Virus record (IMG/VR): IMGVR_UViG_3300042470_001171
Location: 8,814 to 72,813 of that record
Strand: one strand, 5' to 3'
Source of the DNA: a virus
Taxonomy: Duplodnaviria > Caudoviricetes
Length of the DNA: 64,000 nucleotides
The notes under the pieces were generated by a model. It saw only the letters and a list, made by a program, of their open reading frames with translations, was not told the origin of the DNA and ran no database searches. Shown here one piece after another: positions 2,627 through 63,514 of the stretch (position 1 is the stretch's first letter; each line of letters begins with the position of its first letter). Position numbers and translations under genes: made by a program.

Positions 2627-2712
2627 GCCCACAACAGTGGGCGTGTTTCGTGGGATCAAGGCTTTTCTGTGTCAAGAATGACGCATACCACCCCACCGCC
2701 GTGGGGGTTATA
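2627..2712 (+). CRISPR. Two-repeat mini-array with one full-length spacer
   Basis: GCCCAC-aaca-GTGGGC-GTGTTTC and CCCCAC-cgcc-GTGGGG-GTTATA, 64-nt period. Confidence 0.6.
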
Positions 2713-2760
2713 AAACCCAACTCTAAGCCACAATCCACACATTTACAGAGAAAAACCACT

Positions 2761-3024
2761 ATGAAAGGCTGGACATTTATTCACAACGGGAATGGCTACT
2801 GCCGTCCGGATCGGGAAGAGGTCGAAGAACTGCTTGCCGATCTAATCGAGAAAGACAAATTCTTTAAAAGGGAGTCAAAGTTTTCCTACTGCGCCCCTGA
2901 CGGCAGTCCTATCCAGTACGCCCAGGTGACGGTAGAGGAAGGCCACCTGATCAGCTACAAGGCAATTAAGCCACCCACCTCAAGAACCCAACTAAAAGCC
3001 ACCAGCCATCAGCCACACACTTAA
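2761..3024 (+). CDS. Hypothetical protein
   Basis: ATG 2761 after a CACATTTACAGAG leader motif. Confidence 0.55.
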   Translation: MKGWTFIHNGNGYCRPDREEVEELLADLIEKDKFFKRESKFSYCAPDGSPIQYAQVTVEEGHLISYKAIKPPTSRTQLKATSHQPHT

Positions 3025-3035
3025 AGACAACCGCC

Positions 3036-3635
3036 ATGCTGGCCAGACAACCCCTCGACTTCTATCCCACCCCCGGCCTGCTCACCTGGGCCTTGCTGGA
3101 TAGCCATCGCTTTGTCCCCTGGCGCAACCAGGCCACCGTGCTGGAGCCCTGCAATGGCGAGGGTGCGATCAGCGATGTGCTGAAAGAATCTGGCTTGTTC
3201 CGCCTGGTGGATACCGCCGACATTGATCCGGCCAAGACCAAGCCAGCAACCGCCATCGGTGCCACCAGCTTCACCATGGACGCCACCGATCCGCAAGCCT
3301 GGGCCCGGATGGCCCGCTACGACTGGGTGATCACGAACCCGCCCTACAACCAAGCCCCGGCGATCTTGCCATTGGCCTACGACAACTGCCGGGTGGGCAT
3401 GGCCATGTTGTTGCGCCTCAGTTACCTGGAGCCCTGCAACAACCGGGCCCGCTGGCTGGCAGAACACCCGCCGGCCAAGCTGATCGTCTTTAACCCCCGG
3501 CCACGGTTCCGGGCGGATACAGTCGGCAGCGACTCGGTGACTAGCGCCTGGTTTATCTGGCACCGCTTCGGCAATAGCCAAGGGACTGAGCTTGAATTTT
3601 GTACTAACTGGAGAAACCATGGAACTGACAATTGA
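3036..3635 (+). CDS. DNA amino-methyltransferase (probably N6-adenine)
   Basis: DFYPTP, VLEPCNGEG SAM-binding motif, ITNPPY catalytic motif. Confidence 0.85.
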   Translation: MLARQPLDFYPTPGLLTWALLDSHRFVPWRNQATVLEPCNGEGAISDVLKESGLFRLVDTADIDPAKTKPATAIGATSFTMDATDPQAWARMARYDWVITNPPYNQAPAILPLAYDNCRVGMAMLLRLSYLEPCNNRARWLAEHPPAKLIVFNPRPRFRADTVGSDSVTSAWFIWHRFGNSQGTELEFCTNWRNHGTDN

Positions 3636-4752
3636 CGCCAAAGGCCTAGCCGCTGTCCTGGCCCTGCCTAACCGGGCGGTGCCAAACAGGCCCAGCAACC
3701 CTGTACTAACTAACCTGCTGCTCAATGCTGAGGGGGATACCCTGGCGGTGACAGGCAGTGACCTGGGAGCGGTGACCATCACCGCCAAGGCCAAGGCCAG
3801 CATTGCCGTAGAGGGCGAGATCCTGCTACCGGCCAAGCTACTCACCGATATGGTGGGGCGGATGGACGGGAACCTAGCGCTTAACTGGGATCCAGAAACC
3901 AGCCAGGCCACCATCAGCACTCTGGGAGGCAAGTATTCCCTATCCGGCCAGCCCGGGGAGGACTACCCGCTGATCGAGCGGGCAGAGGGCCAGCAGCTAA
4001 CCATGGAGGCCAGCACCTTGGCCAGGGCACTAGAGTCCACGCTAGTCACCGCTAGCGATGACGAGAGTAAGCAGATCCTTTGTGGCGTTCACCTGCAACC
4101 CGTTGCCGATGGCCTCGAGGTTGCCTCCACCGATGGCCATCGCCTCAGCGTGTTCCCCGTGGCCCAGGAGGGCATTGAAGCATTTACCCCTGTCACACTG
4201 CCTAGCAAAGGCCTGAAGGCCCTGAGTGGGCACCTGGGCAAGGCTGAGGGGATGGTGACGGTAACGCTAGACAACACCATCGCCACCTTTGACCTGGGTG
4301 GCCTGGTATTTACCACCCGGCTACTGGAGGGCCAGTATCCAGAGTACCGCCGACTCATCCCCCAGGCCTTTGTAGTGGAGACCCTGATCAACCGGCAAGC
4401 CTGGATCGATGCCCTGAGCCGGATCATGGTGGTGGCTAGCCAAAAGCAAGGCATCATCAGGCACCAGTGGAATGACCAGGGACAGCTAGTGCTAGAAGCT
4501 GACGTACAAGGCTCTAGCGGGCGGGAGCTGGTTGACTGTGAGGCCAGCGAAGGCCAGGGTGAGGACGTGCTGGGCAAAGCTAAGAATCCCATGGCCTTTA
4601 ACGGCGACTACCTGCTGGATGGCCTCAAGGCCTTCGGCAGCGAGCAGGTGATCCTGCACACCAACACCCCGACCAGCCCAGCCACGATCACCGCCCCCGG
4701 CAGCAGCCAGGTGTACCTGGTGATGCCAGTACAAATCAGGGACCAGATTTAG
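3619..4752 (+). CDS. dnaN: DNA polymerase III beta sliding clamp
   Basis: GSDL, EDYP, STDGHRL, RLLEGQYPEYRRLIP, AFNGDYLLDGL, YLVMPVQ. Confidence 0.95.
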   Translation: MELTIDAKGLAAVLALPNRAVPNRPSNPVLTNLLLNAEGDTLAVTGSDLGAVTITAKAKASIAVEGEILLPAKLLTDMVGRMDGNLALNWDPETSQATISTLGGKYSLSGQPGEDYPLIERAEGQQLTMEASTLARALESTLVTASDDESKQILCGVHLQPVADGLEVASTDGHRLSVFPVAQEGIEAFTPVTLPSKGLKALSGHLGKAEGMVTVTLDNTIATFDLGGLVFTTRLLEGQYPEYRRLIPQAFVVETLINRQAWIDALSRIMVVASQKQGIIRHQWNDQGQLVLEADVQGSSGRELVDCEASEGQGEDVLGKAKNPMAFNGDYLLDGLKAFGSEQVILHTNTPTSPATITAPGSSQVYLVMPVQIRDQI

Positions 4753-4780
4753 ACCACACACTTACAGAGGAGACAAGACC

Positions 4781-5170
4781 ATGGAACGCTTTACTTTTGC
4801 CGACTGCACCATCCAGGGCAGGCTGATCCGAGACCCCGAACTGCACACAACACCGTCTGGCAGCGCCCGTTGCCAGACCGCTATCAATTGGTACAGCGGC
4901 AAGCACGCCAATGGCGAACCGTACTACAGCCTAATCGACGTAACGATCTGGAAGGAAGCAGGCATGGACGCTGTTGACAACTTACGCAAGGGCGACCGTG
5001 TGAAAATGGTCGGCTCACTGAAACGAGAACAATGGCAGGACAAAAATACTGGCGGCAACCGCTCTAAGCATGTGCTGCACGTTTGGGATGCAGTCGAGCT
5101 GATCGAGCGCCCCAACCAGGACCAGCCAGCCCAGCCCAGCCAGCCCACCTACGAGGACATCCCCTTCTAA
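4781..5170 (+). CDS. ssb: Single-stranded DNA-binding protein
   Basis: GRLIRDPEL, LRKGDRV, EQWQDK, acidic EDIPF tail. Confidence 0.92.
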   Translation: MERFTFADCTIQGRLIRDPELHTTPSGSARCQTAINWYSGKHANGEPYYSLIDVTIWKEAGMDAVDNLRKGDRVKMVGSLKREQWQDKNTGGNRSKHVLHVWDAVELIERPNQDQPAQPSQPTYEDIPF

Positions 5171-5364
5171 TGAGCAGACTATCTTTACGCCCCGGCTACT
5201 CCGTATCGTTCCGCGTCACCAAAGATAAGCCATGGATGGCGGCTACCGTACAATCCGTGGTAGGCAGTACAGTCTGGATCCGGCTAAATGCCGATATTGA
5301 CGGGCTCATCAGCCTGAACCTGGACGACCCAGCCGACTTGGACTGCATTGGCACGCCGTTCTAG
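5170..5364 (+). CDS. Hypothetical protein
   Basis: ATG overlaps the ssb stop (TAATG). Confidence 0.55.
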   Translation: MSRLSLRPGYSVSFRVTKDKPWMAATVQSVVGSTVWIRLNADIDGLISLNLDDPADLDCIGTPF

Positions 5365-5377
5365 ATGAGACGACAGA

Positions 5378-5400
5378 TCCCACCACCGTGGGAGTGCCTA
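5378..5400 (+). repeat. Solitary CRISPR-repeat-like hairpin
   Basis: TCCCAC-cacc-GTGGGA-GTGCC at the operon 3' end, before a terminator. Confidence 0.5.
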
Positions 5401-5508
5401 CGGGCACGTTTGAGAGTTAAAAACCCCGGCATAAGCTGGGGTTTTTATTGCCAGTTATTGACTGAGTTATTGATCATTCCGATCAATTCTTGGCCTGTGC
5501 CAGCTACT

Positions 5509-5596
5509 GTGCCACTAATTTACCTGGGGTATATTGACAAGCCCGATATAGTGGGGGTATATTAGAGACATGGAACGAACCACTTACACCGAGGAC
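5509..5596 (+). promoter_or_regulatory. Sigma70-type promoter cassette (copy 1)
   Basis: GTGCCACTAAT...GGGGTATA-TTGACA(5534)-18bp-TATATT(5558), then ACCACTTACACCGAGGA. Confidence 0.8.
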
Positions 5597-5602
5597 CGAC
5601 TG

Positions 5603-5785
5603 ATGACCACCTTCACCACCACCCCTGCCGCTACCCCCACCTTTCGGAACGCCGCCCGCTGGCTCACCCGCCAGCCCTGGCAGTCAGACCCAGCTTACTG
5701 GGTAGCCCAGGCCAAGACCCGCTACGACCTCACCAACCACCAAGTAGCCGCCCTACTCAACAACATGCAGCTACAACTAGGCTAG
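5603..5785 (+). CDS. Hypothetical protein (stand-alone cassette)
   Basis: Own promoter, GAGGA RBS and terminator. Confidence 0.6.
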   Translation: MTTFTTTPAATPTFRNAARWLTRQPWQSDPAYWVAQAKTRYDLTNHQVAALLNNMQLQLG

Positions 5786-5808
5786 GCCACCGCCACCCTA
5801 CACTCCAG

Positions 5809-5832
5809 CCCCTCCCCCCGGAGGGGTTTTTT
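5809..5832 (+). terminator. Rho-independent terminator
   Basis: CCCCTCC-cccc-GGAGGGG followed by T6. Confidence 0.75.
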
Positions 5833-5847
5833 ATTGTGACAGTGGTT

Positions 5848-5903
5848 GTGCCACTAATTTACCTGGGGTATATTGACAAGCCCTATATACCCCCTGTATA
5901 TTG
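5848..5903 (+). promoter_or_regulatory. Sigma70-type promoter cassette (copy 2)
   Basis: Same upstream block; TTGACA(5873)-18bp-TATATT(5897). Confidence 0.8.
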
Positions 5904-5993
5904 AGAACATACAAAGCAACCCACCCCGGATGGCTGGAACACCAGAAACGCTAGCCCAGGCAGGGGAGGGAGAATACACAAAAGGAGACCACT

Positions 5994-6215
5994 ATGATTA
6001 AGTTCGAGCGCAAGAGCAACGGATCCCGTGAAGCCAAACTAAACATCAAAGGTCTTAACGCTTTTGCTAAAGCGGTAGAGCTTCAAAAGCTTGAGCGCCA
6101 AGGCTACACCGTTATGCCTTACAGATACGAAACCGACTCCAAAGGGTTTTTCACCAAGACAGTTTGGCTATACCGGGCTCACTGCGAAAACCGCACCATC
6201 TGGATCCACGCCTAA
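5994..6215 (+). CDS. Hypothetical protein (stand-alone cassette)
   Basis: AAGGAG RBS, own promoter, terminator at about 6224-6245. Confidence 0.7.
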   Translation: MIKFERKSNGSREAKLNIKGLNAFAKAVELQKLERQGYTVMPYRYETDSKGFFTKTVWLYRAHCENRTIWIHA

Positions 6216-6260
6216 CCACCCTGCCACCCGGCGGGGTGGTTTTTTATTGTGACAGTCATT

Positions 6261-6316
6261 GTGCCACTAATTAGCCCGGGGTATATTGACAACCCCAATA
6301 TAGGGGGGGTATATTA
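6261..6316 (+). promoter_or_regulatory. Sigma70-type promoter cassette (copy 3)
   Basis: TTGACA(6286)-18bp-TATATT(6310). Confidence 0.8.
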
Positions 6317-6321
6317 GAGAC

Positions 6322-6512
6322 ATGGCCGAAAGGGCCGAGGGGATGCTACCCCCTAGTCAAAGCTTCCGGCGGGGGGAGATACGCAGTAACGAGATCTACA
6401 TCGGTCAGCGCTGATAGCCAGACACCGCTTAAAGATCCTGTAGGGGCCGCAAGGTTCCTAGTGCCGGAGCCCTTCGTTTAGCGGGGCTGCCCACGGTGCC
6501 CCCCAGAGGGGA
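6322..6512 (+). ncRNA. Candidate structured non-coding RNA (about 190 nt)
   Basis: Directly after a strong promoter, only an 11-codon ORF, several hairpins with GNRA-type loops and a long-range stem. Confidence 0.5.
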
Positions 6513-6524
6513 AGAACACTGGTA

Positions 6525-6938
6525 CTACAAACTACAGGGGCGGTCAATGTGGTGGACGCCAAGATCGCATCCCTTGATCCTCAATGCTGCGTACTCCCCC
6601 CGCCTCTGTGTCTGGCCTGGGAATAACGATAGCTGCACTTGCTGAGGTTCAGCGGCAGGGCGGCCAACATCCTGATTTAGCCATTCCAGATAACCTGGAT
6701 CGCTACCGCCCAGGTTAGGCCCTGGCGCTGGATGCTGGATCCCGCCAACCTTGACGATAGTGCGCTTTACCCATGGCGGATCCAGTAGGTTGCCTTCTAT
6801 GTGGTTATACCAACGCATTTCTATAGCTCGGTGACACAATGCCCGGCCACGCATAGCCGTCAAGATATCACCCGTCCTGGCCGCTTCAGTAAGTAGCGCC
6901 TGTCCCTGCTCAAAAAGACATTTAGCCTCGTCTATCAT
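6525..6938 (-). CDS. Hypothetical protein
   Basis: Start overlaps the sigma gene stop (ATGA). Confidence 0.6.
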   Translation of the reverse strand: MIDEAKCLFEQGQALLTEAARTGDILTAMRGRALCHRAIEMRWYNHIEGNLLDPPWVKRTIVKVGGIQHPAPGPNLGGSDPGYLEWLNQDVGRPAAEPQQVQLSLFPGQTQRRGEYAALRIKGCDLGVHHIDRPCSL

Positions 6939-7525
6939 TGCGCCAGCCCCCAGCAGCTCACCTCGTAGACTGGCTCTGGCTCCCAGTCTGGCTCTGGTGG
7001 TGGCCTGCTATCGGGTAGCTCCCAGCAGTCGGTTAAGCCAGCCGCTAGCGGTGCATCCAGGCTGAGGCAGTCTGGCCGTAGCAACGCATTGAGCGCCTGC
7101 GGGATCTGGTCTATCGGGATCCGGGTAGCGCTGGCCATGGCGGCATGGCTGGCCCGCTCGTCATAGAGCTGGCGTAGCAGGGTGAACCGGTCTGACCAGC
7201 TACGCGGTATCTTCAGCGTCACCGCCCGGTCCCGGCGATGGTGCAATATCTCACCCCGGATGTAGGGCACAGCGTAGCTACTGAAGGCGGTGCCCTTAGC
7301 TGGGTTGTAGCGGTCCACTGCCTTGATCAGGCCGATCACTCCCACCTGCACCAGATCCTCGAATACTTCCACGCCGTCCTGGGCATAGCGGCCAGCTATC
7401 TTCTCCACCAGCCCCAGGTTGATCAGGATCAGAGTGTCGCGGGTACGCTTATAGTCGGCGGCTTTTAGTTGGGTTCTAAGCCGCGCAAATAACTCTTGTG
7501 TTTGGATCCGTATTTCCCGGCTCAT
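6935..7525 (-). CDS. Alternative RNA polymerase sigma factor (SigF/SigB-like), apparently lacking region 4
   Basis: NLGLVEKIA, FEDLVQVGVIGLIKAVDRYNPAKGTAFSSYAVPYIRGEILH, LSLDAPL; ends about 35 aa later. Confidence 0.9.
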   Translation of the reverse strand: MSREIRIQTQELFARLRTQLKAADYKRTRDTLILINLGLVEKIAGRYAQDGVEVFEDLVQVGVIGLIKAVDRYNPAKGTAFSSYAVPYIRGEILHHRRDRAVTLKIPRSWSDRFTLLRQLYDERASHAAMASATRIPIDQIPQALNALLRPDCLSLDAPLAAGLTDCWELPDSRPPPEPDWEPEPVYEVSCWGLAQ

Positions 7526-7615
7526 GCCACCCCCACCAGCCGATATAGTCAGTGTTCCCCTATACTATACTGGGTAAACTGTCAAGCTGGATCCAGTTGT
7601 GGGCACCCTGAAGCC

Positions 7616-8503
7616 ATGGATACTATTACCGTCACCTCCCAGCCCTCCCAGACTGCTAGCCTTGCCCTGCAGCAGGCCAGTAGCGACGACCACCTGATCG
7701 AGATGTGGATCAGTCGTTCCCGAAGTGCTGGCACCCAGAAAGCCTACCGTCGAGCGATCACCCGGCTACGGGCTTGGCTAGCCCACCACGACTGCCACCA
7801 GCTAGCCATGGTCACAGCGGCCATGCTGATCGACTATGAGGCCACGTTCCCGAAGCGCTGGAGCGATGCTACCTGCAACCTGCACAAGGCCGCCATCAAG
7901 TCGCTGTGGAAGTTTGGCAGCTCCATTCGTTACCTGCACTTTAATGTCCCCCATGCTGTCTACCGGCTAGGCAAGCCCAGGCCAGTCATGGCGGAGCGGA
8001 TCCTAACCGAAGGCGAAATGAGGCGGGCCATTGCCAAGGAACCTAGCCTGGAGGCCCAGCTATTCCTGCGCTTCCTATTTGCTACTGGCGTTCGGGCCAG
8101 CGAGGCGCTAGCGGTGCGGTGGTGTGACCTGCACCTACGCGGCCAGCGGGTGTTCCTGGCTATCCACCACGGCAAGGGCGACAAGGCCCGCGAGATCGGA
8201 TGCTCCAAGGCTGTCTACGACGCGCTGATCCAGGCCCGGCCAGAGGATGCGCTGGACCAGGACGAAATATTCCCGGTGCCCTACCTGATCGCTTGGCAAT
8301 GGGTGAAGGTGGCCATGGCCAGGATCGGCAAGCCCCAGGCTAGCCCCCACTGGCTGCGCCATGCCCATGCTGTCACCGCAGCCGCCCATGGCTCCGACTG
8401 GTGGAGCATTGCACAGCAATTAGGCCACGCCCGGCCGTCGTTCACAATGGACCGCTACGCCCATTTTAATGGGGTGTTTAGCTCGGACTATGTGGATATT
8501 TAA
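7616..8503 (+). CDS. Tyrosine recombinase/integrase
   Basis: TGVRASE (R), GKGDK (K), HWLRH, LGHA, RY. Confidence 0.93.
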   Translation: MDTITVTSQPSQTASLALQQASSDDHLIEMWISRSRSAGTQKAYRRAITRLRAWLAHHDCHQLAMVTAAMLIDYEATFPKRWSDATCNLHKAAIKSLWKFGSSIRYLHFNVPHAVYRLGKPRPVMAERILTEGEMRRAIAKEPSLEAQLFLRFLFATGVRASEALAVRWCDLHLRGQRVFLAIHHGKGDKAREIGCSKAVYDALIQARPEDALDQDEIFPVPYLIAWQWVKVAMARIGKPQASPHWLRHAHAVTAAAHGSDWWSIAQQLGHARPSFTMDRYAHFNGVFSSDYVDI

Positions 8504-8542
8504 GCGCCTAAAACGCACAAAGCCCGGCAAAGCCAGGGCGGA

Positions 8543-16385: not shown

Positions 16386-16697
16386 CTACCAAATAGTAGA
16401 CTGGATAGGATGCCCTTCGGCATCCTGGTAACAGACTTCAAGATCTTCTCCCTGAATGTTCAGCTTCGTCACGTGCTCAAAGTCGTCGACAATCCGGCAG
16501 TGCTCCGGCAACCCCAAGCACTGAGACTCGGGAATGCGGGCAGCCGCAACGTACTGAAAATAGGAACCCGCTTCGGTACGGGTGCTGGGTATTTCCAACC
16601 ATTCAATCCCGGGAATAACAGGAGAGTGATGGGAAGTCAATTGCCCGTCACGGACGTCACAGACAACAAGCTTTACATTTTCAACTTTAGTATTCAT
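16386..16697 (-). CDS. Hypothetical protein (stand-alone cassette)
   Basis: Preceded by the TTGACA/TATATT cassette and ACCACTTACGGAG. Confidence 0.65.
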   Translation of the reverse strand: MNTKVENVKLVVCDVRDGQLTSHHSPVIPGIEWLEIPSTRTEAGSYFQYVAAARIPESQCLGLPEHCRIVDDFEHVTKLNIQGEDLEVCYQDAEGHPIQSTIW

Positions 16698-16788
16698 AAC
16701 CTTCTCCGTAAGTGGTTCAACAATTTCAATATACCCCCGCCATATCGGCATGTCAATACACCCCCAGTAAATTACTGGCACAACCTCT

Positions 16789-16871
16789 GGCACACTCCCA
16801 CCACAGTGGGATCCGCCTGCAGCAGTCCAGCGACACACCTCCACGACACACCCCCACCGCAGCGGGGAACC
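16789..16871 (-). CRISPR. Two-repeat mini-array downstream of the FtsK-like gene
   Basis: CCCCGC-tgcg-GTGGGG-GTGTGTC, spacer, TCCCAC-tgtg-GTGGGA-GTGTGCC; period 56. Confidence 0.65.
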
Positions 16872-16873
16872 TG

Positions 16874-18166
16874 CTAGGCGGTCTCCTGGCCTGGCTTGGT
16901 CCGGTAGAATGGCGTCAGTCGCTGGATCGGCGGGATAGCCAGATCAGGCACAACGCCGATCCTCAGGCTATTGGCGTAGATGGCATAGGTGCGGTTTACC
17001 CCGGGCTGGTTGCGGATCTGGCTGTGGTAGCCTTGGGCAGCCTGTCGGTCGGCGGGGGAGCGGATCAAGGCAGGATCCTGGAGCATGTTGTCAATGCTCT
17101 TGCTGTTGCCCTCCATCGGCTTGCCCAGGTTGTCCTGGGTGGTCTTGCAGCCTAGCCCCAGGGTGCATAGGTTATCCCGTAGGCCACTGCTAAAGGTATT
17201 CCTGCCGCCAGACAGGCTCAGATCGCCTAGCAGGTGCGACTGGTTCACCATGATCAGGTGCATGTTTAGCTCCCGGCCTGCGGCGATCAGACTAAGCAAG
17301 CGTTGCTCCATGGCCGACTTGACAGAGCCCTCCATGGCGCTGCACTTGCCCTTTAGCAGCATCCATTCGTCGAATACCGCCCAGATGTGGTTACCCACCG
17401 GGCGGCCCGCTTGGTTCAGCTCAAAGCGTCGTTCTAGCTCAGCTTCCAAGTCCCTGACTACCATCACATAGTCAACGCCAGACTTCATCCTGGTAACAGC
17501 TGGGGTCAACTGTCCCCACTTGGAGCCCTTGGGATCACAGATCACCAGTTCATCGCCGCGGTTGGCCAGGATAGCGCACAAGCACTGAAGCAGGTGAGTT
17601 TTACCGGATCCAGTCGTCGCCGATAGCAAGATATGGATCTGGCTGGCCAGGTACTGGGGCAGGCTAGTGGCCAGCGGTACTGGCTTCCACCCCTCCACCA
17701 CTGGCTCCGGTGGCGTCGCTGGCTGGCTTGGCGGTGGTGGTGACGGTGCGGGGCTCGCTGGGCTGGGCTGGCTTTTGGCCTTTGCTGGACTTTCCCCCTC
17801 CGTCTCCAGAGGGGGCAGCACTTTTGGGGCGCTAGCCATGGCACGTTCTATGAACATGTCCAACGTTTCCCGTTGATCAGCTTTCAAGCCTTGGAGCAAT
17901 ACCGATGGATCCTGGTAACTCTTGGCTACGATCTGACGGTTCTTGCGCAGCCTGCGGGCACCGTCGTAGGCCACCAGGCTAGCGGCGGCATAAGCAACTG
18001 CAGGGATCGACGAAAATGCAGAGAACAGCAGAAACACAACAACCCCCAAGGGTACATGGGCCTTAGGGATCTGTTGGGCGTAGTGCTGCCTCAACATATC
18101 GTTGAGAAATTCTGGAGCTTGCGAACTGCCTTTCAGGCTACTTGGCACGGGCTTTTGCTGACTCAT
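16874..18166 (-). CDS. FtsK/SpoIIIE-HerA-like membrane ATPase
   Basis: N-terminal TM, Walker A ATTGSGKT, ICDPK, Walker B AVFDE, GRE..MHLIMVNQ. Confidence 0.82.
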   Translation of the reverse strand: MSQQKPVPSSLKGSSQAPEFLNDMLRQHYAQQIPKAHVPLGVVVFLLFSAFSSIPAVAYAAASLVAYDGARRLRKNRQIVAKSYQDPSVLLQGLKADQRETLDMFIERAMASAPKVLPPLETEGESPAKAKSQPSPASPAPSPPPPSQPATPPEPVVEGWKPVPLATSLPQYLASQIHILLSATTGSGKTHLLQCLCAILANRGDELVICDPKGSKWGQLTPAVTRMKSGVDYVMVVRDLEAELERRFELNQAGRPVGNHIWAVFDEWMLLKGKCSAMEGSVKSAMEQRLLSLIAAGRELNMHLIMVNQSHLLGDLSLSGGRNTFSSGLRDNLCTLGLGCKTTQDNLGKPMEGNSKSIDNMLQDPALIRSPADRQAAQGYHSQIRNQPGVNRTYAIYANSLRIGVVPDLAIPPIQRLTPFYRTKPGQETA

Positions 18167-18650
18167 GGCCACCTCCTAAGAAACCGGGCACCTTTCCGCC
18201 CCGGCTAAGGTACTGCTGGACACACAACTGCATTCCAAACACACAGGCCAGGATCGACGCTACGGCCTGCCAGCGGATGTCGCCAAACGTCACTCCACCA
18301 ATGGCCACCAACTTATAACTGGATACTGGCGGCCACACCAAAAGGCCTGCAATAAAGTCCACCGCATAGCCCAGCGTGGCCCAGAGGGTAGCATCCAGCA
18401 GCTCTTCTGGATCCGCCAGAGCAAAGCTGGGCACCTTGCCGCCGACCAACTTATTTAGCGTCGGGAAAATTCCCGCGCCGCCATTGGTGAGGAATATAGG
18501 CTTCAGCTCGAAGCCCTGGACAAGCAGAAACACCACGACAGCGATTAGGCCACCCAGGCGACCGCCAAAGGTATCCTGGCCGACGGCGTTATAGGCCTTG
18601 AGGCTGTTGACAAAGATCGCTCCAGCCAACACCAGAAACAAGTACTTCAT
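18138..18650 (-). CDS. Multi-pass membrane protein
   Basis: About 4 hydrophobic segments; overlaps both neighbours. Confidence 0.7.
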   Translation of the reverse strand: MKYLFLVLAGAIFVNSLKAYNAVGQDTFGGRLGGLIAVVVFLLVQGFELKPIFLTNGGAGIFPTLNKLVGGKVPSFALADPEELLDATLWATLGYAVDFIAGLLVWPPVSSYKLVAIGGVTFGDIRWQAVASILACVFGMQLCVQQYLSRGGKVPGFLGGGHESAKARAK

Positions 18651-19141
18651 TGGCCACCTCCCGCATGACGGGCCAGCCATGCCTGCTTGTACTGGCCGAC
18701 GTCAAGGGTGCCATTGAAGGCGTACTCTTGTACTCTGCCATCGCCGTCGATAACGCCAGTATTGCCAGAGGTGTCGCACACCACCTGGCCACGGCTGTAG
18801 GTGCGGCCCTGCCAGTTGATAGGCATCATGCCCTCTGCAATGGGTTGGGCGGTAATGTCAGTGGCCCCGGTTACAGCCGTCTCTGGCCGCTGGAAATCAG
18901 CCTTGACGTAGTGAAAGGTGCAGCCCGCTTCATAGCGTTGGGCTGCCACCTCAGCCATTTGGCTTAAGTGGTCCTGGGTGCTGAGCGCGGCTACCTGCTC
19001 CTTGGCCGACTCCCGGCGTTGCTCTTTCACGGCCTTGCCGTCCTGCAGGATAGCAGCCCCCTGCTCAGTGCCACCTGAAAACAGGGTAAAGCCCACCAAG
19101 ACAAGGCCGCCAATGGGCAAAATCAATTCTTCAATGCTCAT
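18647..19141 (-). CDS. Membrane-anchored/periplasmic protein
   Basis: N-terminal TM; ATGA-coupled. Confidence 0.7.
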   Translation of the reverse strand: MSIEELILPIGGLVLVGFTLFSGGTEQGAAILQDGKAVKEQRRESAKEQVAALSTQDHLSQMAEVAAQRYEAGCTFHYVKADFQRPETAVTGATDITAQPIAEGMMPINWQGRTYSRGQVVCDTSGNTGVIDGDGRVQEYAFNGTLDVGQYKQAWLARHAGGGQ

Positions 19142-19545
19142 TCGTCCATCCCTCCAGCGTAGGGGTTTTCAGGCTTGGGGGTGGGATCGGTAGCCCGACG
19201 GCGGCGCTCCATGACTACACTGCCAGCCACCATGGCGGCAACAGCGGCCAGCACCGCAATGAACAGCCAGGGCGGGCCAGCGGGCTCAGCCACCGCAGCA
19301 ACCGGCTCAGCCACGGGTATAGGCTCAGTGGTTGCCAGCGGCGTAGCTACAGGCACCGCCTGGCCATGCTGGGTGAGGCCACGGATGTCGCAAACACCCG
19401 CAGCGTCTAGCTCAAACCATGCCTCTCTGGGACTGAGGCCAGCCTCCAGCGGGTATTGCTGATCGCCCCATAGCAGGTAGTTGGTGTCCCGGGGGGCGGG
19501 GCTCGATACCATGTCCTGGCACCGAGGCTTTGTAAGTGGATCCAT
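19138..19545 (-). CDS. Membrane protein with C-terminal TM and basic tail
   Basis: WLFIAVLAAVAAMVAGSVV-ERRRR. Confidence 0.6.
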   Translation of the reverse strand: MDPLTKPRCQDMVSSPAPRDTNYLLWGDQQYPLEAGLSPREAWFELDAAGVCDIRGLTQHGQAVPVATPLATTEPIPVAEPVAAVAEPAGPPWLFIAVLAAVAAMVAGSVVMERRRRATDPTPKPENPYAGGMDE

Positions 19546-19740
19546 TGTCAAGGTTCTCCGAGGATGAAGGTGGACAATTGCCGCCATAGCAACGGGCCAT
19601 TGGCTTTTTGTTGGCACAAATCGGCACCCAGGCTAAAGCCAACAAAAAGCCCCACCACAAAAATGGCGGTGGCCAGGATGGCCAGAAGGCCGTCGTCATG
19701 ATCGCTGTGCATGGCTTGGCAAAAGGAGCGGAGTCTTACC

Positions 19741-19808
19741 GCTCACCCCCACAATGGTGGGGCAATTAAAGCGCTTCAGCAGGATCCACCCCCACTGGCG
19801 TGGGGCTT
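19741..19808 (-). CRISPR. Two-repeat mini-array inside the FtsK operon
   Basis: CCCCAC-gcca-GTGGGG-GTGGATC and CCCCAC-catt-GTGGGG-GTGAGC; period 43. Confidence 0.65.
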
Positions 19809-19812
19809 GGCC

Positions 19813-20235
19813 CTAGTCCTCGTCAGTGCCACCGTAGGCAGCGGGCAAGCGCAGGGCCGGAGGCTGGATCCCGGCAGAGAAAGCTTTGAAGCGTTCCACC
19901 AAATCAGCGTCAGGACGCTTAGGCAAAAGGCCAGAAATGTCAATCGGCTCAATGGTGGTGTTGATCGTCATGGACCGGACGTTGGCCAGCCGGGCCATGA
20001 CAGCGCCCATCAAGCCTTGGCCGCTAAGGGCGTCTTCAAGCAAAGGCGCTATCTGATCAGCCAGGCGCTCCTTAGTGGAGCTGTACTGCTCGGCCAGGCT
20101 GGCCAGGGCCAGGGCGTCTGACTGCATCTGGCCAGCAATGGCCATGGCCAGCTCATGGCCAGCGGCTAGCGGCGCAACACCCTCGGGGGTGCCGGTGGAC
20201 TGAGACTGTTCGTTAAGTTGATCGGAGAGGTTCAT
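19813..20235 (-). CDS. Hypothetical protein
   Basis: 140-aa ORF with AAGGA RBS, ATGA-coupled. Confidence 0.65.
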   Translation of the reverse strand: MNLSDQLNEQSQSTGTPEGVAPLAAGHELAMAIAGQMQSDALALASLAEQYSSTKERLADQIAPLLEDALSGQGLMGAVMARLANVRSMTINTTIEPIDISGLLPKRPDADLVERFKAFSAGIQPPALRLPAAYGGTDED

Positions 20236-20489: not shown

Positions 20490-20520
20490 AACGAGAAATC
20501 AACCTTTCGGGACGGTCTCA

Positions 20521-20574
20521 TCGAACATTGTCGAACATTGTCGAACATTACAGGACGTTCGACAATGTTCGACG
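20521..20574. repeat. Three tandem TCGAACATT(G/A) plus an inverted copy; probable operator
   Basis: tcgaacattg tcgaacattg tcgaacatta ... cgacaatgttcga between divergent genes. Confidence 0.8.
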
Positions 20575-20678
20575 TAGGATCCACCATAGCACAGCCTAGC
20601 CATTTTTGTGTCATTTATTTGGCGCTTTTGCGGGGACTGGTGGTAGGCTGTGACAGTTGTTATAATTTGTAGCTTTCT

Positions 20679-28832: not shown

Positions 28833-28836
28833 GCCA

Positions 28837-51589: not shown

Positions 51590-52394
51590 CCAGTCGGCCA
51601 GTGCTGACCAGGCCCAGCGCACGGCCATCTATGACGGTGGCGGCAACTATCGCACCGTTGGCGCAGCCGGCAGCTACCGCCCCAAGGGAACGGTCACCTC
51701 TGGCGGGGTGCCGGTCGGCCAAGCAGTGCCAGCCAACAATGGTTTGGTTGGTGGTATGCCTGCTAGCTTTGGCGGCGATGCCCAAGCCATCCGCGACCTA
51801 CGGGAACGCCTAGCCCAGGTCGCTGAGGAGCGAGGCTTCCAGGCATGGCAGGGCGACCCCAACACCCAAGGCCAGGGCGAGACACCCCTAGCGGCTAGGT
51901 ACTTGTTTGACCGCTACCTAGACCGCGATACCATGACGCTGTACTACTGGCAGCAGTCGAGTGCTAACACAGGCGGCAGGTGGATCCCGGTTGCCTCTGG
52001 CCTGGACTCGCTGAGCGGCGGCATCGAAACGCCAGCGGTTAAGCAATACCCGTTGATCACCTACAACGATGAGCCACGCAAGATCATGGCGTTGCACTTG
52101 CGGGTCAATGCGGATCCAGTCGTTGTGGCTAGTGTGACTCAAGGCGCTGGGGCTAGTACATTAGCTTGGACGGTCACCCAAAATAACCAGCAGGTAAACC
52201 GCACCATCACGGCTACGCTGTTAGTCGATACCGCCAATGGCCAGAACCAGCCAGTAACCCTAGGCACCACGATCTTAGAGCTTGGCAGCCTGCTAAAGCT
52301 AGGCTTGACCGGCGTTACTGTCGGGCCTGAACTGCTGTCGTTTACGGTGCAGTTTCAGTCAGCAGCCTTTGATCTGGCCATGGAGGAAGAGTAG
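51519..52394 (+). CDS. Putative virion/tail protein
   Basis: 291-aa ORF in the tail operon. Confidence 0.6.
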   Translation: MATQPITSRVLNSQQQRLEGQQASQSASADQAQRTAIYDGGGNYRTVGAAGSYRPKGTVTSGGVPVGQAVPANNGLVGGMPASFGGDAQAIRDLRERLAQVAEERGFQAWQGDPNTQGQGETPLAARYLFDRYLDRDTMTLYYWQQSSANTGGRWIPVASGLDSLSGGIETPAVKQYPLITYNDEPRKIMALHLRVNADPVVVASVTQGAGASTLAWTVTQNNQQVNRTITATLLVDTANGQNQPVTLGTTILELGSLLKLGLTGVTVGPELLSFTVQFQSAAFDLAMEEE

Positions 52395-52396
52395 GC

Positions 52397-53473
52397 ATGG
52401 GTAGGCAGCTAGGCTGGGTATGGTTTGGGGCGAGAGGGGCTAGGATCTATTGTGTTCCGTATTTTAATACCGCAGGAAATCAGTTTGGGATTGTAAACAC
52501 AGGGTCAAACACATTGACGCTAACGACATTAGGCGCTAACCCTGGAATAGATTACTATTGGTTTAGATCTGTATCTGTAGGCAGGAAAGTTTATGCCTTG
52601 CCAACAACGCGCTTTTTTGGCACTAGTGATTATGAGTTTGGAATTATAGATACAGACACAGATACATTAACAATAACTGCGTTAGGCCTTAATCCGGGGA
52701 TAGATTACTTTTGGATAGGCGTTTCAGCTGTAGGCACTAGGATTTATTGTATACCAAGCTCTGCTAGTGCAGGTAATCTATTTGGAATAATAGACACAGA
52801 GACGGACACATTAACGTTATCAGCATTAGGGCTGGACGATCAGACAAGCTATAGATGGGGTGTTTCGGCGGCAGTAGCTACAAGGATTTATTGTATTCCA
52901 GATTTTAACGTAGGGGCGAACCAGTTTGGAATTATAAACACGGAAACAAACACAATAGAGTTGACAACATTAGGAGTTTCACTTAATGAGAATCATTGGT
53001 GGGAAACAATTCAGGCTGTAGGCACCAAGATCTACTGCATTCCTTATATTAATGCAAAGGGAAATTTATTTGGCATTATAGACACAGAAGCCAATATATT
53101 AACTTTAACGACACTAGGATTAAGCTCTGCCGTAGGGTACGCATGGATTGCTTCTGCAGTTGTAGGTACAAAAATTTATTGTATTCCACAGCGCAACCTC
53201 GGAGGAAATCAGTTCGGCATCATAGACACAGAAACAAACACATTGACACTAACGACATTAGGTGCAGATCCTGCAATAAGTTATGGGTGGAGCGCATCTG
53301 CGGTCGTAGACAAGAAAATCTACTGTATCCCGACTCTGAACATTTTTAATGGAGGAAATCAGTTTGGGATTATAGACACAGAGACAAACACATTGACGCT
53401 GACAACACTAGGCGAAAATTCTCAAGACGACTATCGCTGGTGGTCAGCTGTTGCAGTTCAGACCCAATCCTAA
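52397..53473 (+). CDS. Seven-repeat beta-propeller-like protein, low GC
   Basis: Seven about 48-aa units IYCIP..GNQFGIIDTETNTLTLTTLG..Y.W. Confidence 0.8.
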   Translation: MGRQLGWVWFGARGARIYCVPYFNTAGNQFGIVNTGSNTLTLTTLGANPGIDYYWFRSVSVGRKVYALPTTRFFGTSDYEFGIIDTDTDTLTITALGLNPGIDYFWIGVSAVGTRIYCIPSSASAGNLFGIIDTETDTLTLSALGLDDQTSYRWGVSAAVATRIYCIPDFNVGANQFGIINTETNTIELTTLGVSLNENHWWETIQAVGTKIYCIPYINAKGNLFGIIDTEANILTLTTLGLSSAVGYAWIASAVVGTKIYCIPQRNLGGNQFGIIDTETNTLTLTTLGADPAISYGWSASAVVDKKIYCIPTLNIFNGGNQFGIIDTETNTLTLTTLGENSQDDYRWWSAVAVQTQS

Positions 53474-53577
53474 CCCCCACTCCAGTACCGCCATGACACA
53501 TCCTCTTTGCAGGTTATGTCATGGCACCCCTAGCCAGGGTCGCCATAGTAGGCTAGTCATGGGGGAGGGCGTAACCC

Positions 53578-54891
53578 ATGGCACACTATCAGCTTTGTTA
53601 TGGCCGGGTCAGCAGCAAGGACCAAAACCTGGACCTGCAGATCCAGCAATTTCAACAACAGGTAGAGTTTGACGAACTATTTACCGAGTCATTGTCTGGC
53701 CGCCGTCGGGACCGGCCCGAGTTTCTACGCCTAGTTGACCGGGCGCTTGAACTACGCCAGCACCGGCACCAGGTAACCGTCTGGGTGGTGGAATGGACCC
53801 GATGGGCAAGAGATACCGTCTGGGCGATGGAAAGCCTTGCCCAGCTAGAGGCCGCTGGCGTGCAGGTGAAGGAACTAACTACCGGCCAAGAAATCACGCT
53901 CCAGACCGCCTCAGGGCTGCTTACAACCGGCGTTAAGTCGCTCATGGCCCACTACTACTCTGAGGAGCTATCGGCACGGCTGAAGCGGGCTAACGTGCAA
54001 CTACGCCGCCAGGGTAGGCCGATGGGTGGCCTGCCTCCCTTTGGCTACCAACGATCTGCTGACAATAGCTGCTACGAGCCCGGGCCAGACTGGGGCACGG
54101 CCAGAGAGGCGGTAGACTACTACCTAGAGCATGGCAACTTGCTACAGCTCACCCATATGATGCAAGACCGCTACGGCATTGGTCGAAACAGGACGGTCTG
54201 GCGGGCGTGGCTAAAGAACCCTACCCTACGCGGTCACCTGCACTATCGCAAAACTAACGAATGGCGCTACAATGCTCACCCAGCCTTGATCAGCGAGGAT
54301 GAGTACAAGCGTATCGAGTACTGGATCGACCTAAACCGTCAGCTGCGGGGCAACAACCAGGGCCGCATCCATGCGGTGCCGCCCATCGTGTCTTGTAGTT
54401 GTGGCTGTCGGTGCCGCCCCAACTCTCGCGGAAAGAATCGGTACTTTATCTGTGCTGCCAATGGTGGAGGATACCCTAACCGGCCACGGTGCCCCCAGAC
54501 CCGTTCCTGCCGCCAGGACATGATCGAAGCAGCTATCCAGGAGGCATTGATCGACCATGCCCAGGCTATCGCCCATAGCCTGAAATCTGACACAGCCTTT
54601 GACCCTGCCATTGCTGCCCTGGAGCAGGAGATAGCCGCACTCCAGCCCCTTGCCCACCGGGCTGCCATCGCTGAGGAGATAGCGTCCATTGAGGCAGAGA
54701 TCCTGGCTAGGCGTAGCCACCAGGGTCAGGCGCTAGCCAGCAGCCAGCAGCTACAGCAGCAAGCCATTGATGCCGCGTCGATGGACTGGAGTACCTTGGC
54801 CGCCCCAGAGCGCCGTCAGCTCTATGCTGAACTGGTGGAGCGGGTGATCATTCAAGGCAATGAAGTGCTAGAAGTACGGTTCAAGCGCTAA
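53578..54891 (+). CDS. Large serine recombinase/integrase
   Basis: YGRVSS..Q, SGRRRDRPEF, RWAR, PPFGY, HPALIS, Cys-rich Zn ribbon, coiled coil. Confidence 0.93.
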   Translation: MAHYQLCYGRVSSKDQNLDLQIQQFQQQVEFDELFTESLSGRRRDRPEFLRLVDRALELRQHRHQVTVWVVEWTRWARDTVWAMESLAQLEAAGVQVKELTTGQEITLQTASGLLTTGVKSLMAHYYSEELSARLKRANVQLRRQGRPMGGLPPFGYQRSADNSCYEPGPDWGTAREAVDYYLEHGNLLQLTHMMQDRYGIGRNRTVWRAWLKNPTLRGHLHYRKTNEWRYNAHPALISEDEYKRIEYWIDLNRQLRGNNQGRIHAVPPIVSCSCGCRCRPNSRGKNRYFICAANGGGYPNRPRCPQTRSCRQDMIEAAIQEALIDHAQAIAHSLKSDTAFDPAIAALEQEIAALQPLAHRAAIAEEIASIEAEILARRSHQGQALASSQQLQQQAIDAASMDWSTLAAPERRQLYAELVERVIIQGNEVLEVRFKR

Positions 54892-58922: not shown

Positions 58923-58927
58923 AGTTG

Positions 58928-61834: not shown

Positions 61835-62407
61835 ATGACCCGCAAGCTTTGCCTACACCCAGTCGATGGCCAACACCCCTACTGGGTGCTGGATGGTTCC
61901 TGGCCGCCCCCCGCTGGACTGTGGAGTATTGGCCGGGATCCGGAATGCGATATTCACATTATAGACTCACGGCTCTCGAAACGACACGCCGAGCTACGGG
62001 CCACCGATGTTACCCAGTCAGGCGAGCGGGTGTGGCTGTGGGAACTGAAGGACGGTTTCAGCACCAATGGCACCTATATCAATAGCCGGGCCCTGAAGCC
62101 TGGCCTATGGGCAGATCTGATGGCCCATGATGTGCTATGGCTAGGCGGGCTAGTCTACCGGGTTTCTCACGATGATGATGACACTAGCGGGACAAAGCTG
62201 ATGACTGAGCCAGCCAAGCAGGACCATGGCCATGACCACCACACTGAAATAACCGGCGATGCGCCCCGGGGTGCCCGGCCATGGTGGGCGGAATGGGTGG
62301 AGTCGGTCTGGGCCTGGTGGACTAAGCAACCGCTATTCGTGCAATGGCTCATGCTGGTCACCAGTGGCGGGCTAGCGGCACTGCTGCTCTGGGTATGGAA
62401 GCTGTAG
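61835..62407 (+). CDS. FHA-domain membrane protein
   Basis: IGR..CDI..SKRHA..D..STNGTYIN; C-terminal TM. Confidence 0.88.
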   Translation: MTRKLCLHPVDGQHPYWVLDGSWPPPAGLWSIGRDPECDIHIIDSRLSKRHAELRATDVTQSGERVWLWELKDGFSTNGTYINSRALKPGLWADLMAHDVLWLGGLVYRVSHDDDDTSGTKLMTEPAKQDHGHDHHTEITGDAPRGARPWWAEWVESVWAWWTKQPLFVQWLMLVTSGGLAALLLWVWKL

Positions 62408-62467
62408 GCAAACAAAAACCCCAGCCATGGGGCCGGGGTGGTGGGGAGGTGGGGTGGAGTAAGTTGC

Positions 62468-62791
62468 TTAAAGAGGAGCAAAAAACTGCAGATCCCAGAC
62501 TAGATCATCCATATCCGCCTGGGAATGGCTTATCGCAACTCCATACGGAGAGTTAGCTTGCCTCAGGATAGGGCGGTAATATCCTCTTTGCTCATGCGCT
62601 CCCTGAGAAAGGTTTATCCCCCAGGCACCCCCGTCACGCGGAGGCATAATATAGCCCACAAGGCTTCCGTTCACGGAGACCTGGAAGACAAGCTGGCCAT
62701 TAAGGTAGCCGAGGTCGACAGCAGATCGCTCATCAAACGCGCTAGCGATCCGATTGGCTGTTATCTTTTCTCCTGGCTGCAGGTAAAGCAT
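62468..62791 (-). CDS. Hypothetical protein (stand-alone cassette)
   Basis: TTGACA promoter cassette plus ACCACTTACAGAGG. Confidence 0.65.
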   Translation of the reverse strand: MLYLQPGEKITANRIASAFDERSAVDLGYLNGQLVFQVSVNGSLVGYIMPPRDGGAWGINLSQGAHEQRGYYRPILRQANSPYGVAISHSQADMDDLVWDLQFFAPL

Positions 62792-62909
62792 CTTTGCCTC
62801 TGTAAGTGGTTCAACAATTCCACTATACCCCTCCTATATCGGCTTGTCAATATACCCCTAGCCTTTCCGCTGGCCATGCTGTATAGTAGGGGTAAATTGG
62901 AGAACCTCT

Positions 62910-63122
62910 ATGCCAGACATCATCTACCCCAACCTACGCCCCCGCAAAGCATTCTGGGGCCACCGCAAAAAGGATCGAACCCTAGGCATGACTGATGAGG
63001 CCTGGGAAGGCCTGGATGCTGTCGCCAAGGAGCTAGGCTTGAGCCGCTCCGAGATGGTGCAGCAGATCGGGCTACGCTTGCTCAAGGTAGCGCCTAAGGC
63101 TGGCCCAGCTTCGCCAAAATGA
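62910..63122 (+). CDS. RHH/CopG-like regulator
   Basis: RTLGMTDEAWEGLDAVAKELGLSRSEMV. Confidence 0.75.
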   Translation: MPDIIYPNLRPRKAFWGHRKKDRTLGMTDEAWEGLDAVAKELGLSRSEMVQQIGLRLLKVAPKAGPASPK

Positions 63123-63414
63123 GTTGCAAGGCCCGGGCCTGCTGTGCCGTCATGGCGGGCCAGTGCTGCTCTAGCAATGCAATGGCCTCGCCTAACTGGC
63201 GACGGATCAACGACGCTTTAGCAGTTCCCATCGTTGCCGTAGGTAGGTGCGATAGACTCGGTTGTAGCGGCGCTCCATTACAATGATGCGGGTGCGCTGC
63301 CACAGCCAGGCACAGAAGCCGCCGTAGAGGCCACCGCCTAGGAATAGGGCCGGGTATAGGAGCCAGTCAATCTGAACCTTCATCGTGCAGCCTCCCGCGT
63401 GCTATCCCTAGCTT

Positions 63415-63514
63415 GCCCACTACGGTGGGAGTGAGTCGGCCAGAGGGTGCAGGCCCCACATAAGTGGGGGTGCTTCGATAAGCATGGTATAGCCCCACAA
63501 TAGTGGGGGTTACC
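63415..63514 (+). CRISPR. Three-repeat short-spacer array
   Basis: GTGGG anchors 63425, 63464, 63503; period 39; handles GTGAGTC/GTGCTTC/GTTACC. Confidence 0.7.

Follow-up and report, generated by a model that had tools for sequence, protein, structure and literature searches.

Phage-borne CRISPR (short palindromic repeats, clustered and regularly interspaced) systems that have no nuclease or adaptation genes have been reviewed together with mini-arrays and solitary repeat units (PMC11656645). Cracr arrays comprise 2-3 spacers, occur in cas-less phages and borrow the Cas proteins of the host in order to repress host cas or toxin promoters (10.1101/2024.10.29.618823), and Racrs are solitary, cas-less repeat units (Camara-Wilpert et al. 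2023, PMC10651486). Type IV-A systems acquire spacers in trans via host I-E Cas1-2 (PMC11656645). In this work we focused on a stretch of 64,000 nucleotides (nt), called the window below, which corresponds to bases 8814-72813 of a 72,813-base-pair (bp) virus record (IMGVR_UViG_3300042470_001171) and carries 46 short hairpins, each followed by a handle, around genes for Cas6e, Cas7e, Cas5e and a short Cas8e-like protein. Sequence comparison makes it probable that these hairpins are the repeats of a phage-borne type I-E derivative, nuclease-less and adaptation-less, with two tiers of guides, namely long spacers and shorter ones that we call micro-guides.

The phage shares with the canonical I-E systems of Escherichia coli and Thermus thermophilus (Cas6e/CasE/Cse3) a stem-loop near the 3' end of the repeat, an 8-nt handle, the histidine and G-rich loop of Cas6e, and the sixth-base register of the Cas7 backbone. 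It differs from them in that its units, whose loops and handles vary from one to another, occupy 12 loci rather than one or two arrays, in that its long units have a repeat of ~37 nt and most of its spacers measure 12-25 nt, and in that Cas3, Cas1, Cas2 and Cas11 are absent while Cas8 and Cas5 are shortened. Like the Cracr arrays, it would combine phage-encoded, multiplexed repeat-like hairpins and shortened pseudo-spacers with silencing complexes containing fewer backbone subunits (10.1101/2024.10.29.618823); unlike them, it has its own Cas6e/7/5/8-like set, ~55 units, units embedded in operons and a renewable tier of long spacers. It resembles the Racrs in having repeat mimics in phage intergenic regions, one locus (K) being single, but 45 of the 46 units stand in groups and the phage has cas genes, so that the solitary-unit class does not describe it (PMC10651486). 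Type IV-A systems and type I CRISPR-associated transposons have likewise lost Cas3, kept crRNA (CRISPR RNA) binding and target recognition, and have no adaptation module (PMC11656645). The present case concerns a tailed phage with no transposase or DinG seen near the locus, and neither a micro-guide tier nor operon embedding appears in the accessible parts of that review. CreR/CreA mini-arrays (Shmakov et al. 2023, 10.1101/2023.03.03.530964) are also repeat-like units in or beside cas operons, and their crRNA-like products match partially. They act through a nearby match to autoregulate cas or toxin genes, whereas the phage has only weak self-matches and most of its units lie far from cas. In the literature searched, to which the supplementary tables of the Cracr and Racr papers did not belong, no phage with its own Cas3-less I-E module and dispersed or operon-embedded repeats is described.

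The hairpin units and their strand

Each unit consists of a C-rich/G-rich stem of 5-6 bp, a free loop, an invariant 3' arm GTGGG and then a GU-NNN-UC handle, of which the G and T directly after the stem are at least 90% conserved and the later T-C ~70-90%. The core motif CCCAC-N3-5-GTGGG was found 40 times in the window, against 0.63 expected and at most 3 in any shuffled sequence, and 51 times in the whole genome. For comparison we used three syntenic IMG/VR contigs with a nucleotide identity of 80-95%, namely G001 of 77.5 kb, G002 of 74.2 kb, which bears direct terminal repeats, and G003 of 29.3 kb; together with the phage under study (G000) they make up the four genomes referred to below. 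Oriented units, scored as a 5-bp stem plus handle, numbered 54, 62, 50 and 36 in G000, G001, G002 and G003, respectively.

A covariance model, R1, was built from 128 four-base-loop hairpins of the three relatives only and used to scan both strands of the window with filters off. It gave 46 full-length matches at E<=0.02, 25 on the plus and 21 on the minus strand. These occupy all ten loci at which a preliminary description of the window had placed about 48 hairpins, and lie nowhere else in it; the count given there is also borne out. That description had also found none in the head and tail modules, and R1 gave nothing with E<0.28 between 29,100 and 63,400, where the tape measure, major head, portal and terminase genes lie. 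The opposite strand of the R1 units yielded partial, stem-only matches (E>=0.03), so that each unit has one defined strand. Eight further units lie just upstream of the window, in arrays A (3 units, plus strand) and B (5 units, minus strand), and a motif scan counts about 55 units in the 72.8-kb genome, over 12 loci. The hairpins are thus confirmed as real and highly non-random. The embedded loci keep their positions in the relatives.

At 7 of the 8 loci that have genes on their flanks, the units run in the direction of those genes (one-sided binomial 0.035). The exception at 63408-63519, antisense to its neighbours, is the one that had been set apart when agreement with the upstream transcript was proposed. 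The description of the units as elements of operon untranslated regions (UTRs) applies to 19-20 units at seven loci and fails for three antisense units and for 24 of the 46 window units, which are not mRNA-UTR elements because they stand in arrays C and F behind a leader cassette of their own.

The loops vary freely, as first reported. In the five core pairs of 123 distinct hairpins from the relatives, changes occur on the 5' side only and always to G.U (22 cells, a count biased by selection, as only paired stems were admitted). Every departure in the 5' arm is C-to-U or A-to-G and retains a G.U pair. The sixth pair (CG 58, UA 9, UG 9, unpaired 47; n=123) did no better than shuffles (141/500), so the compensatory stem changes cited at first carry no statistical weight; what looked like compensation is mostly one-sided G.U wobble. 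We found 33 distinct hairpin variants that pair, via G.U, on one strand only, and 27 of these have a handle scoring 3-4 out of 4 on that same strand. The others are two with a weak handle in the same orientation, three unrelated matches in coding regions and one true counter-example inside an array.

These variants bear on the idea of a DNA-level element, for instance an operator, a centromere-like or recombination site, or a host REP (repetitive extragenic palindromic) sequence, which would act free of orientation on double-stranded DNA. Such an element would explain the palindromic core, and tandem clusters with a ~37-bp period recall iteron or centromere arrays and lie at mosaic boundaries. 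The flanks, however, are asymmetric and strictly strand-specific, the spacing of the half-sites varies (loops of 3-6), the units are homologous to CRISPR repeats, and G.U-only pairing on the handle strand would be meaningless for duplex DNA. A search for the long-repeat motif in 185,579 bacterial species representatives (GTDB) returned four single chance matches and no repeat family. Since G.U pairing is kept only on the handle strand, an orientation-free DNA palindrome is excluded, and an orientation-independent REP-like or operator motif, the explanation against which the preliminary description had set its own, does not fit the strand asymmetry, the G.U-only variants or the GTDB result. The wider DNA-level explanation is extremely improbable, and the pattern is that of an element acting as RNA on the handle strand.

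cas genes, hairpin loci and phage genome

The cas genes of the window are as follows.

10617-11063, minus strand: cas5e, short form (148-155 amino acids, aa); TIGR01868 6.1e-31, PF09704 2.7e-29
11056-12309, minus strand: cas7e, 417 aa; PF09344 1.3e-67, TIGR01869 184 bits, above cut-off
12449-13063, minus strand: cas6e, 204 aa; PF08798 1.6e-31, TIGR01907 52.2 bits (cut-off 45.2), matches to CasE/Cse3 in PDB
13778-14596, plus strand: short gene for a Cas8e-like protein of 272 aa, oriented divergently to the cas operon, with no Pfam match of its own

The phage therefore owns a Cas6, as had been claimed: both profiles recognise it, and His17 and the G-rich loop (GIGRxKxYGCGLLS) are invariant in all 17 aligned sequences. 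In E. coli Cas6e, H20A is a nuclease-dead allele (PMC4499155), and it is from this allele that a catalytic role of the phage histidine is taken. The 272-aa Cas8e-like protein shares 41% identity (E 7e-53) with a protein of the element L026 that has 300 aa and whose N-terminus matches Cse1/Cas8e (PF09481 4.9e-11). A six-frame profile search of G000 found no Cas1, Cas3 core, Cse2 (Cas11) or I-E Cas2 (PF01867, TIGR01587, PF09485, PF09707), and neither Cas1 (PF01867) nor Cas3 (TIGR01587) was found in G001-G003, one of which has terminal repeats.

The closest named Cas7e shares only 33% identity. The cas6e/7/5/8-like set is conserved in all relatives and in the 41%-identical L026. Among metagenomic loci with Cas7e homologues, R1 matched arrays beside Cas7e/Cas5e/Cas6e homologues at L023, L025, L026, L030, L032, L036, L038 and L045. 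They include regular arrays with a period of 61-63 bp and a 29-nt repeat (GTTGTCCCCACACCCGTGGGGGTGAACCG), adjoining Cas7e homologues of 30-36% identity, and intermediate forms at L023 and L025 (Cas7e 48%) and L026 (41%). The last is a 109-kb metagenome contig with ParA/ParB, and its Cas3-less set (7135-12151) comprises a short Cas8-like gene, an unrelated 238-aa gene, Cas6e, Cas7e, an array of 8-9 units with free loops and the canonical period of 62-63 bp, and a short Cas5e. As this array lies between cas7 and cas5, arrays inside the cas operon predate this phage group; genome-wide dispersal of units was seen, among the loci compared, in this phage group only. Identification of the hairpins as type I-E CRISPR repeats of the Cas6e type is supported by these comparisons.

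The hairpin loci of the window, all delimited with R1, and the two leader cassettes are listed below.

2620-2653 (22.8 bits) and 2684-2717 (21.1 bits), plus strand: locus J, 2 units, between a small helix-turn-helix gene (2373-2575) and a gene with its ATG at 2761
5371-5404, plus strand: locus K, 1 unit (23.8 bits), 14 nt past the stop of the gene at 5170-5364
8535-9224, minus strand: array C, 11 units
9225-9275, minus strand: leader cassette of array C, which contains TGCTATAGT (extended -10-like) and repeats the array F leader in inverted orientation
10505-10617, minus strand: locus D, 3 units (10505, 10547, 10584), directly past the cas5e stop and ahead of a TTGACA-N18-TATATT promoter
12335-12448, minus strand: locus E, 3 units (12335, 12372, 12415), between the cas6e stop and the cas7e start
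15040-15090, plus strand: leader cassette of array F, TGCTATAGT ... TTGACAA ... GGTGACGGTGGA
15088-15685, plus strand: array F, 13 units, the first 2-3 long, the others micro-guides (inter-stem 20-33 nt, one of 47)
16785-16874, minus strand: locus G, 2 units, past the stop of a 430-aa P-loop ATPase gene and ahead of a TTGACA-N17-TATATT promoter
19736-19812, minus strand: locus I, 2 units, between the genes at 19813-20235 and 19548-19712
28832-29078, plus strand: array H, 6 units (28832-29052) and a handle-less terminal stem (29063)
63408-63519, plus strand: locus L, 3 units, 22.7-27.6 bits on the plus strand and stem-only 9-13 bits on the minus strand

Arrays C and F (24 units) flank the cas locus. 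Their leader cassette consists of TGCTATAGT, then TTGAcAA..TTGGTGGTAGGTGACGGTGGA running into the first stem, and variants of it precede arrays A and B; from its extended -10-like sequence we take it to be a promoter. The leader-proximal units of array C have a repeat of ~37 nt and spacers of 32-33 nt, and its last units are short (inter-stem 27 nt).

A further 19 units (20 with the handle-less terminal stem of array H) lie in gene junctions, at J, K, D, E, G, I and H, all co-directional with the flanking genes, 6-14 nt past stop codons and 28-55 nt ahead of start codons. Locus K, present in all four genomes, has an intrinsic-terminator-like hairpin with a T-run downstream. At locus E the last handle ends ~28 nt ahead of the cas7e ATG, and the hairpins are local in both the minimum free energy and the centroid fold; a half-repeat lies inside the 3' end of cas6e (12453-12492, R1 E 0.029). 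Array H begins 7 nt past the stop codon of the final gene in the replication/methylase operon and contains micro-guides only (inter-stem 21-23 nt); folded as one 253-nt RNA it shows inter-repeat pairings with z=-1.46, an uninformative fold. Locus L lies directly beyond the stop of a minus-strand tyrosine integrase gene (phrog_1 1.2e-29) and before a small minus-strand gene.

Several short motifs accompany the units. The sequence AACCCAACT-N-TAAGCC flanks both hairpins of locus J (2596-2612 and 2703-2720) and follows the last unit of array B (L018 ~7440-7460, minus strand), and similar words follow terminal units in the relatives. At loci D (10480-10520) and G (16760-16800), both on the minus strand, the last handle GTGTGCCA is followed by GA(A/G)GTTGTGCCA, and a TGTGCCA direct repeat, possibly an operator, lies between hairpin and promoter. 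The promoters there belong to a sigma-70-type cassette (TTGACA, 17-18 nt, TATATT; 11/12 match), of which the window has six copies.

5534-5563, 5873-5902, 6286-6315 and 14611-14639, plus strand: TTGACA/TATATT promoter copies
10476-10447 and 16756-16728, minus strand: TTGACA/TATATT promoter copies, each directly after the last hairpin of locus D or G, respectively

The phage was present in lake-water metagenomes, and against isolate phages it showed no likeness beyond a methylase fragment. It encodes a tape measure protein, a major head protein, a portal and a large terminase, as well as a beta clamp, SSB, DnaB, a C5 methylase, and tyrosine and serine integrases. Neither Rfam matches nor tRNAs were found in the window. 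There are three recombinase genes, for a tyrosine integrase (7496-8503, plus strand), a serine integrase (53578-54891, plus strand) and a second tyrosine integrase (63510-63998, minus strand), the last of which runs past the contig end. Two patches of low GC content (30001-32000 and 52001-54000; 0.49 versus 0.58 elsewhere) may be recent insertions; the first holds a 624-aa open reading frame (ORF) without a PHROG match and the second the start of the serine integrase gene. A stretch of ~46 nt is found identically at ~31985-32030 and ~33224-33270, 1.2 kb apart. At the genome start (L018 1-3711) a 1,236-aa ORF, open at the contig start, contains a beta-propeller and internal tandem repeats, and G002 aligns to it at several offsets.

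Long spacers and micro-guides

In arrays A, C and F the units next to the leader have in common a repeat of ~37 nt made up of CTCGCAAACACCT, the stem with mostly a TTCG or TCCG loop, and then GTTTCTCG, and are separated by spacers of 32-33 nt. Identical repeats with unique 32-33-nt spacers are found in these units and not in the majority. The spacers are wholly different between genomes at the leader end and common at the opposite end: G002 has identical copies of the four units that close array C, and G003 contains one of the spacers of G002. In contigs from lake RNA libraries, other 32-nt spacers and one additional unit occupy these places. This is the pattern expected of polarised acquisition, here in a phage without Cas1-Cas2.

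The other class is short. Among 143 distinct units, 82 have an inter-stem length of 20-33 nt, and loops and handles differ from one unit to another. The short lengths fall into the classes 20-24 (57 units), 27-29 (20) and 32-33 (5), with zero units at 25-26, 30-31 and 34-39. After subtraction of the 8-nt handle this gives guides of about 12-16, 19-21 and 24-25 nt, i.e. classes ~6 nt apart. The short guides are conserved between relatives while the adjoining loops and handles drift; those of array F, for example, are kept in G001 and G002. Members of one guide family are found at more than one locus, both embedded and leader-led.

In class 1 effectors, as established for Cascade, Cas7 flips out each sixth base of the guide, which stays unpaired. 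We compared short guides of equal length with <=3 differences from the four genomes and five close metagenome fragments, counting guide positions from the end of the 8-nt handle. Positions 6, 12 and 18 accounted for 12 of the 31 variable sites, as compared with 35 of all 234 sites (odds ratio 4.9, Fisher p=3.9e-4); by residue class the variable sites numbered 12 (class 0), 7, 1, 6, 3 and 2. With the four genomes alone the values were 10/25 and 28/187 (p=8e-4). The signal is carried more by the array tails. Variation at every sixth position suggests that a Cas7 backbone holds the micro-guide RNAs, that their targets are conserved and pair with them, and that they are cut at the site named in the preliminary description, and it argues for the 8-nt handle register.

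According to the explanation that we consider probable, phage Cas6e would bind the stem and cut at its 3' base, and each inter-hairpin stretch would become a small RNA that carries the 8-nt handle at its 5' end and a hairpin at its 3' end, loaded onto a Cas5-Cas7(n)-Cas6 complex. In the first tier, the leader-led arrays C, F, A and B start with ordinary spacers of 32-33 nt that are added next to the leader. In the second, the array tails and the seven co-directional embedded loci encode conserved micro-guides of 12-25 nt, each of which would hold about 2, 3 or 4 Cas7 subunits. At the embedded loci guide output would track transcription of the surrounding operon, and after the cut the upstream mRNA would end in a 3' hairpin capped by Cas6e, while the downstream mRNA would start with a handle. 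Since there is no Cas3, the complexes most likely bind their targets, probably in the host, and do not cut them. Guide production from phage transcripts is well supported at the level of sequence. Its original form, in which small guides are cut out of the phage mRNAs, agrees with the length classes, the sixth-base variation and the co-directional units and is too narrow for the 24 of 46 units in leader-led arrays. The early and middle timing and the effects on mRNA stability that were proposed with it are hypotheses.

The same junctions would also suit hairpins that serve first of all as processing sites, which cut and insulate polycistronic mRNAs, give them 3' hairpin caps and defined 5' ends, and uncouple cas7-cas5 from cas6, the short RNAs being targetless by-products. 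Engineered Cas6-family sites do serve as operon insulators, the phage units stand exactly at the gene junctions with the distances to stops and starts given above, three of them lie on each side of cas7-cas5, and L026 likewise has arrays inside its cas operon. A single hairpin would do for this purpose, yet most loci have 2-7 at quantised spacings. Loops and handles drift, whereas the sequences between the hairpins are conserved and have their variation at every sixth base, and the same micro-guide families occur in leader-led arrays without genes to process. Processing as the primary role is unlikely.

A lower probability still is given to array debris, in which the short units would be decaying CRISPR remnants spread by recombination between repeats and would act at most as generic hairpins or weak terminators. 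Half-repeats and fused 3' arms do exist (G002 unit 516, G000 unit 25666 and the 3' end of cas6e), hairpin loci coincide with alignment breaks between relatives, and 8 of the 46 units look like terminators. Decay is difficult to reconcile with loci that have kept their places in as many as four genomes whose other parts diverge by 5-20%, with discrete length classes separated by empty gaps, with the sixth-base bias and with the strand-specific pairing that has been kept. In E. coli a repeat hairpin followed by U's can terminate transcription and still give a usable crRNA (PMC4499155).

Targets and significance

The guides of G000 have longest exact self-matches at chance level, save one 16-mer in the cas8-like gene. 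It belongs to the 25-nt guide of array F unit 5 (15333-15357), which matches the 3' part of that gene (14459-14483) at 16/16 positions in G000 and 18/19 in G002, without co-varying between genomes. Two leader-proximal spacers of G001 array B (G001 22362-22560) match an exonuclease-like gene (phrog_7339) just upstream over 26/27 and 18/18 nt. The matched site (G001 22093-22119; G000 genome 7889-7915) is in gene sense and agrees at 26/27 positions in G000 and G003 and 25/27 in G001, which could be self-regulation or duplication.

The beta clamp protein gave no usable host taxon. A 34-nt unit had chance matches only among plasmids, and the plasmid matches of region 8400-15800 consisted of cas-gene motifs, with the exception of a few that lay beyond the arrays. 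Spacers of the metagenomic arrays had no match in the four phage genomes. The comparison of micro-guides with 0.97 Mb of metagenomic I-E loci gave 65 matches versus 29 for the control at 11 specified bases and was rejected as evidence. At 12 specified bases it gave 24 versus 0, but these came from two guides in two sets of near-identical contigs, one of them inside a cas3 gene, and about 2-3 independent matches are expected by chance. The canonical, bacterial-type I-E array at L038 (12495-13028) has a stem, CAGC loop and first handle bases near-identical to array F units 15523 and 15586 (26/28 nt, 92%), a possible clue to the host's own CRISPR system.

The L038 array makes cross-recognition plausible and so bears on host-directed mimicry, in which the units would be Racr-like decoys of host Cas6e/Cas7, or Cracr-like arrays turning host Cascade on its cas genes, with the phage cas genes as accessories. 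Phage arrays with short pseudo-spacers that hijack host Cascade are known, with I-E units of 21-24 nt (10.1101/2024.10.29.618823), and solitary repeat units inhibit I-E systems (PMC10651486). The phage has, however, its own full crRNA-binding set, kept in all relatives and in L026, whereas the known Cracr arrays have 2-3 spacers in cas-less phages (10.1101/2024.10.29.618823), and the matches of micro-guides to canonical I-E loci do not go beyond chance. We regard mimicry as rather unlikely.

Several observations weigh against a guide-producing type I-E derivative. In the stem, true covariation was not above chance among the 123 hairpins of the relatives. The terminator pattern, a GC-rich hairpin with a direct U-run, fits 8 of the 46 units; the others have GU-NNN-UC without a U-run, and as a class the units are not intrinsic terminators. 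Locus L runs antisense to the adjoining genes in each of the four genomes. The sixth-base signal comes from 15 variable clusters only, and it is weaker in the clusters traceable to embedded loci of G000 (L/H, D, I and H), with 4 of 14 variable sites at sixth positions in a hand count. As to targets, a seed search in the phage genome with positions 6 and 12 left free gave 5 matches, as did reversed guides (5), the three newest long spacers had no exact match in IMG/VR, and the arrays had no match in isolate phages or plasmids (window 8400-15800, blastn). The 10-13 paired bases of a micro-guide may be too few for stable binding to double-stranded DNA. Four lake RNA libraries, available as assembled Logan contigs, contain the arrays and cas genes of window 2001-21000 at similar depth, with breaks at repeats or strain variants; being assembled contigs at similar depth, they show neither transcription nor RNA ends. 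Finally, the record is 79% complete (CheckV), which leaves some room for an overlooked gene.

We retain the nuclease-less, adaptation-less type I-E derivative with two tiers of guides as the probable explanation. A more far-reaching version, offered tentatively as a possibility, is a natural multiplexed CRISPR interference system, in which Cas6e cuts ~20 operon sites, including those on the cas7-cas5 message, so shaping these mRNAs while it frees fixed 12-25-nt guides as each operon is transcribed, a mini-Cascade with 2-4 Cas7 subunits silences genes of the host or of rivals, and the long spacers are renewed by host adaptation enzymes.

Should the embedded units be cut and loaded as proposed, the phage would have natural Cas6 sites inside protein-coding operons, such as synthetic biologists have made by hand, and a class 1 effector with guides far below the canonical crRNA length, which bears on the minimal functional Cascade. 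The two-tier arrays raise the question of how 32-33-nt spacers are acquired at a 37-nt repeat in a phage without Cas1-Cas2. The conserved micro-guides would be a list of the sequences that the phage must recognise and, for an identified host, should point to the host functions that it silences.

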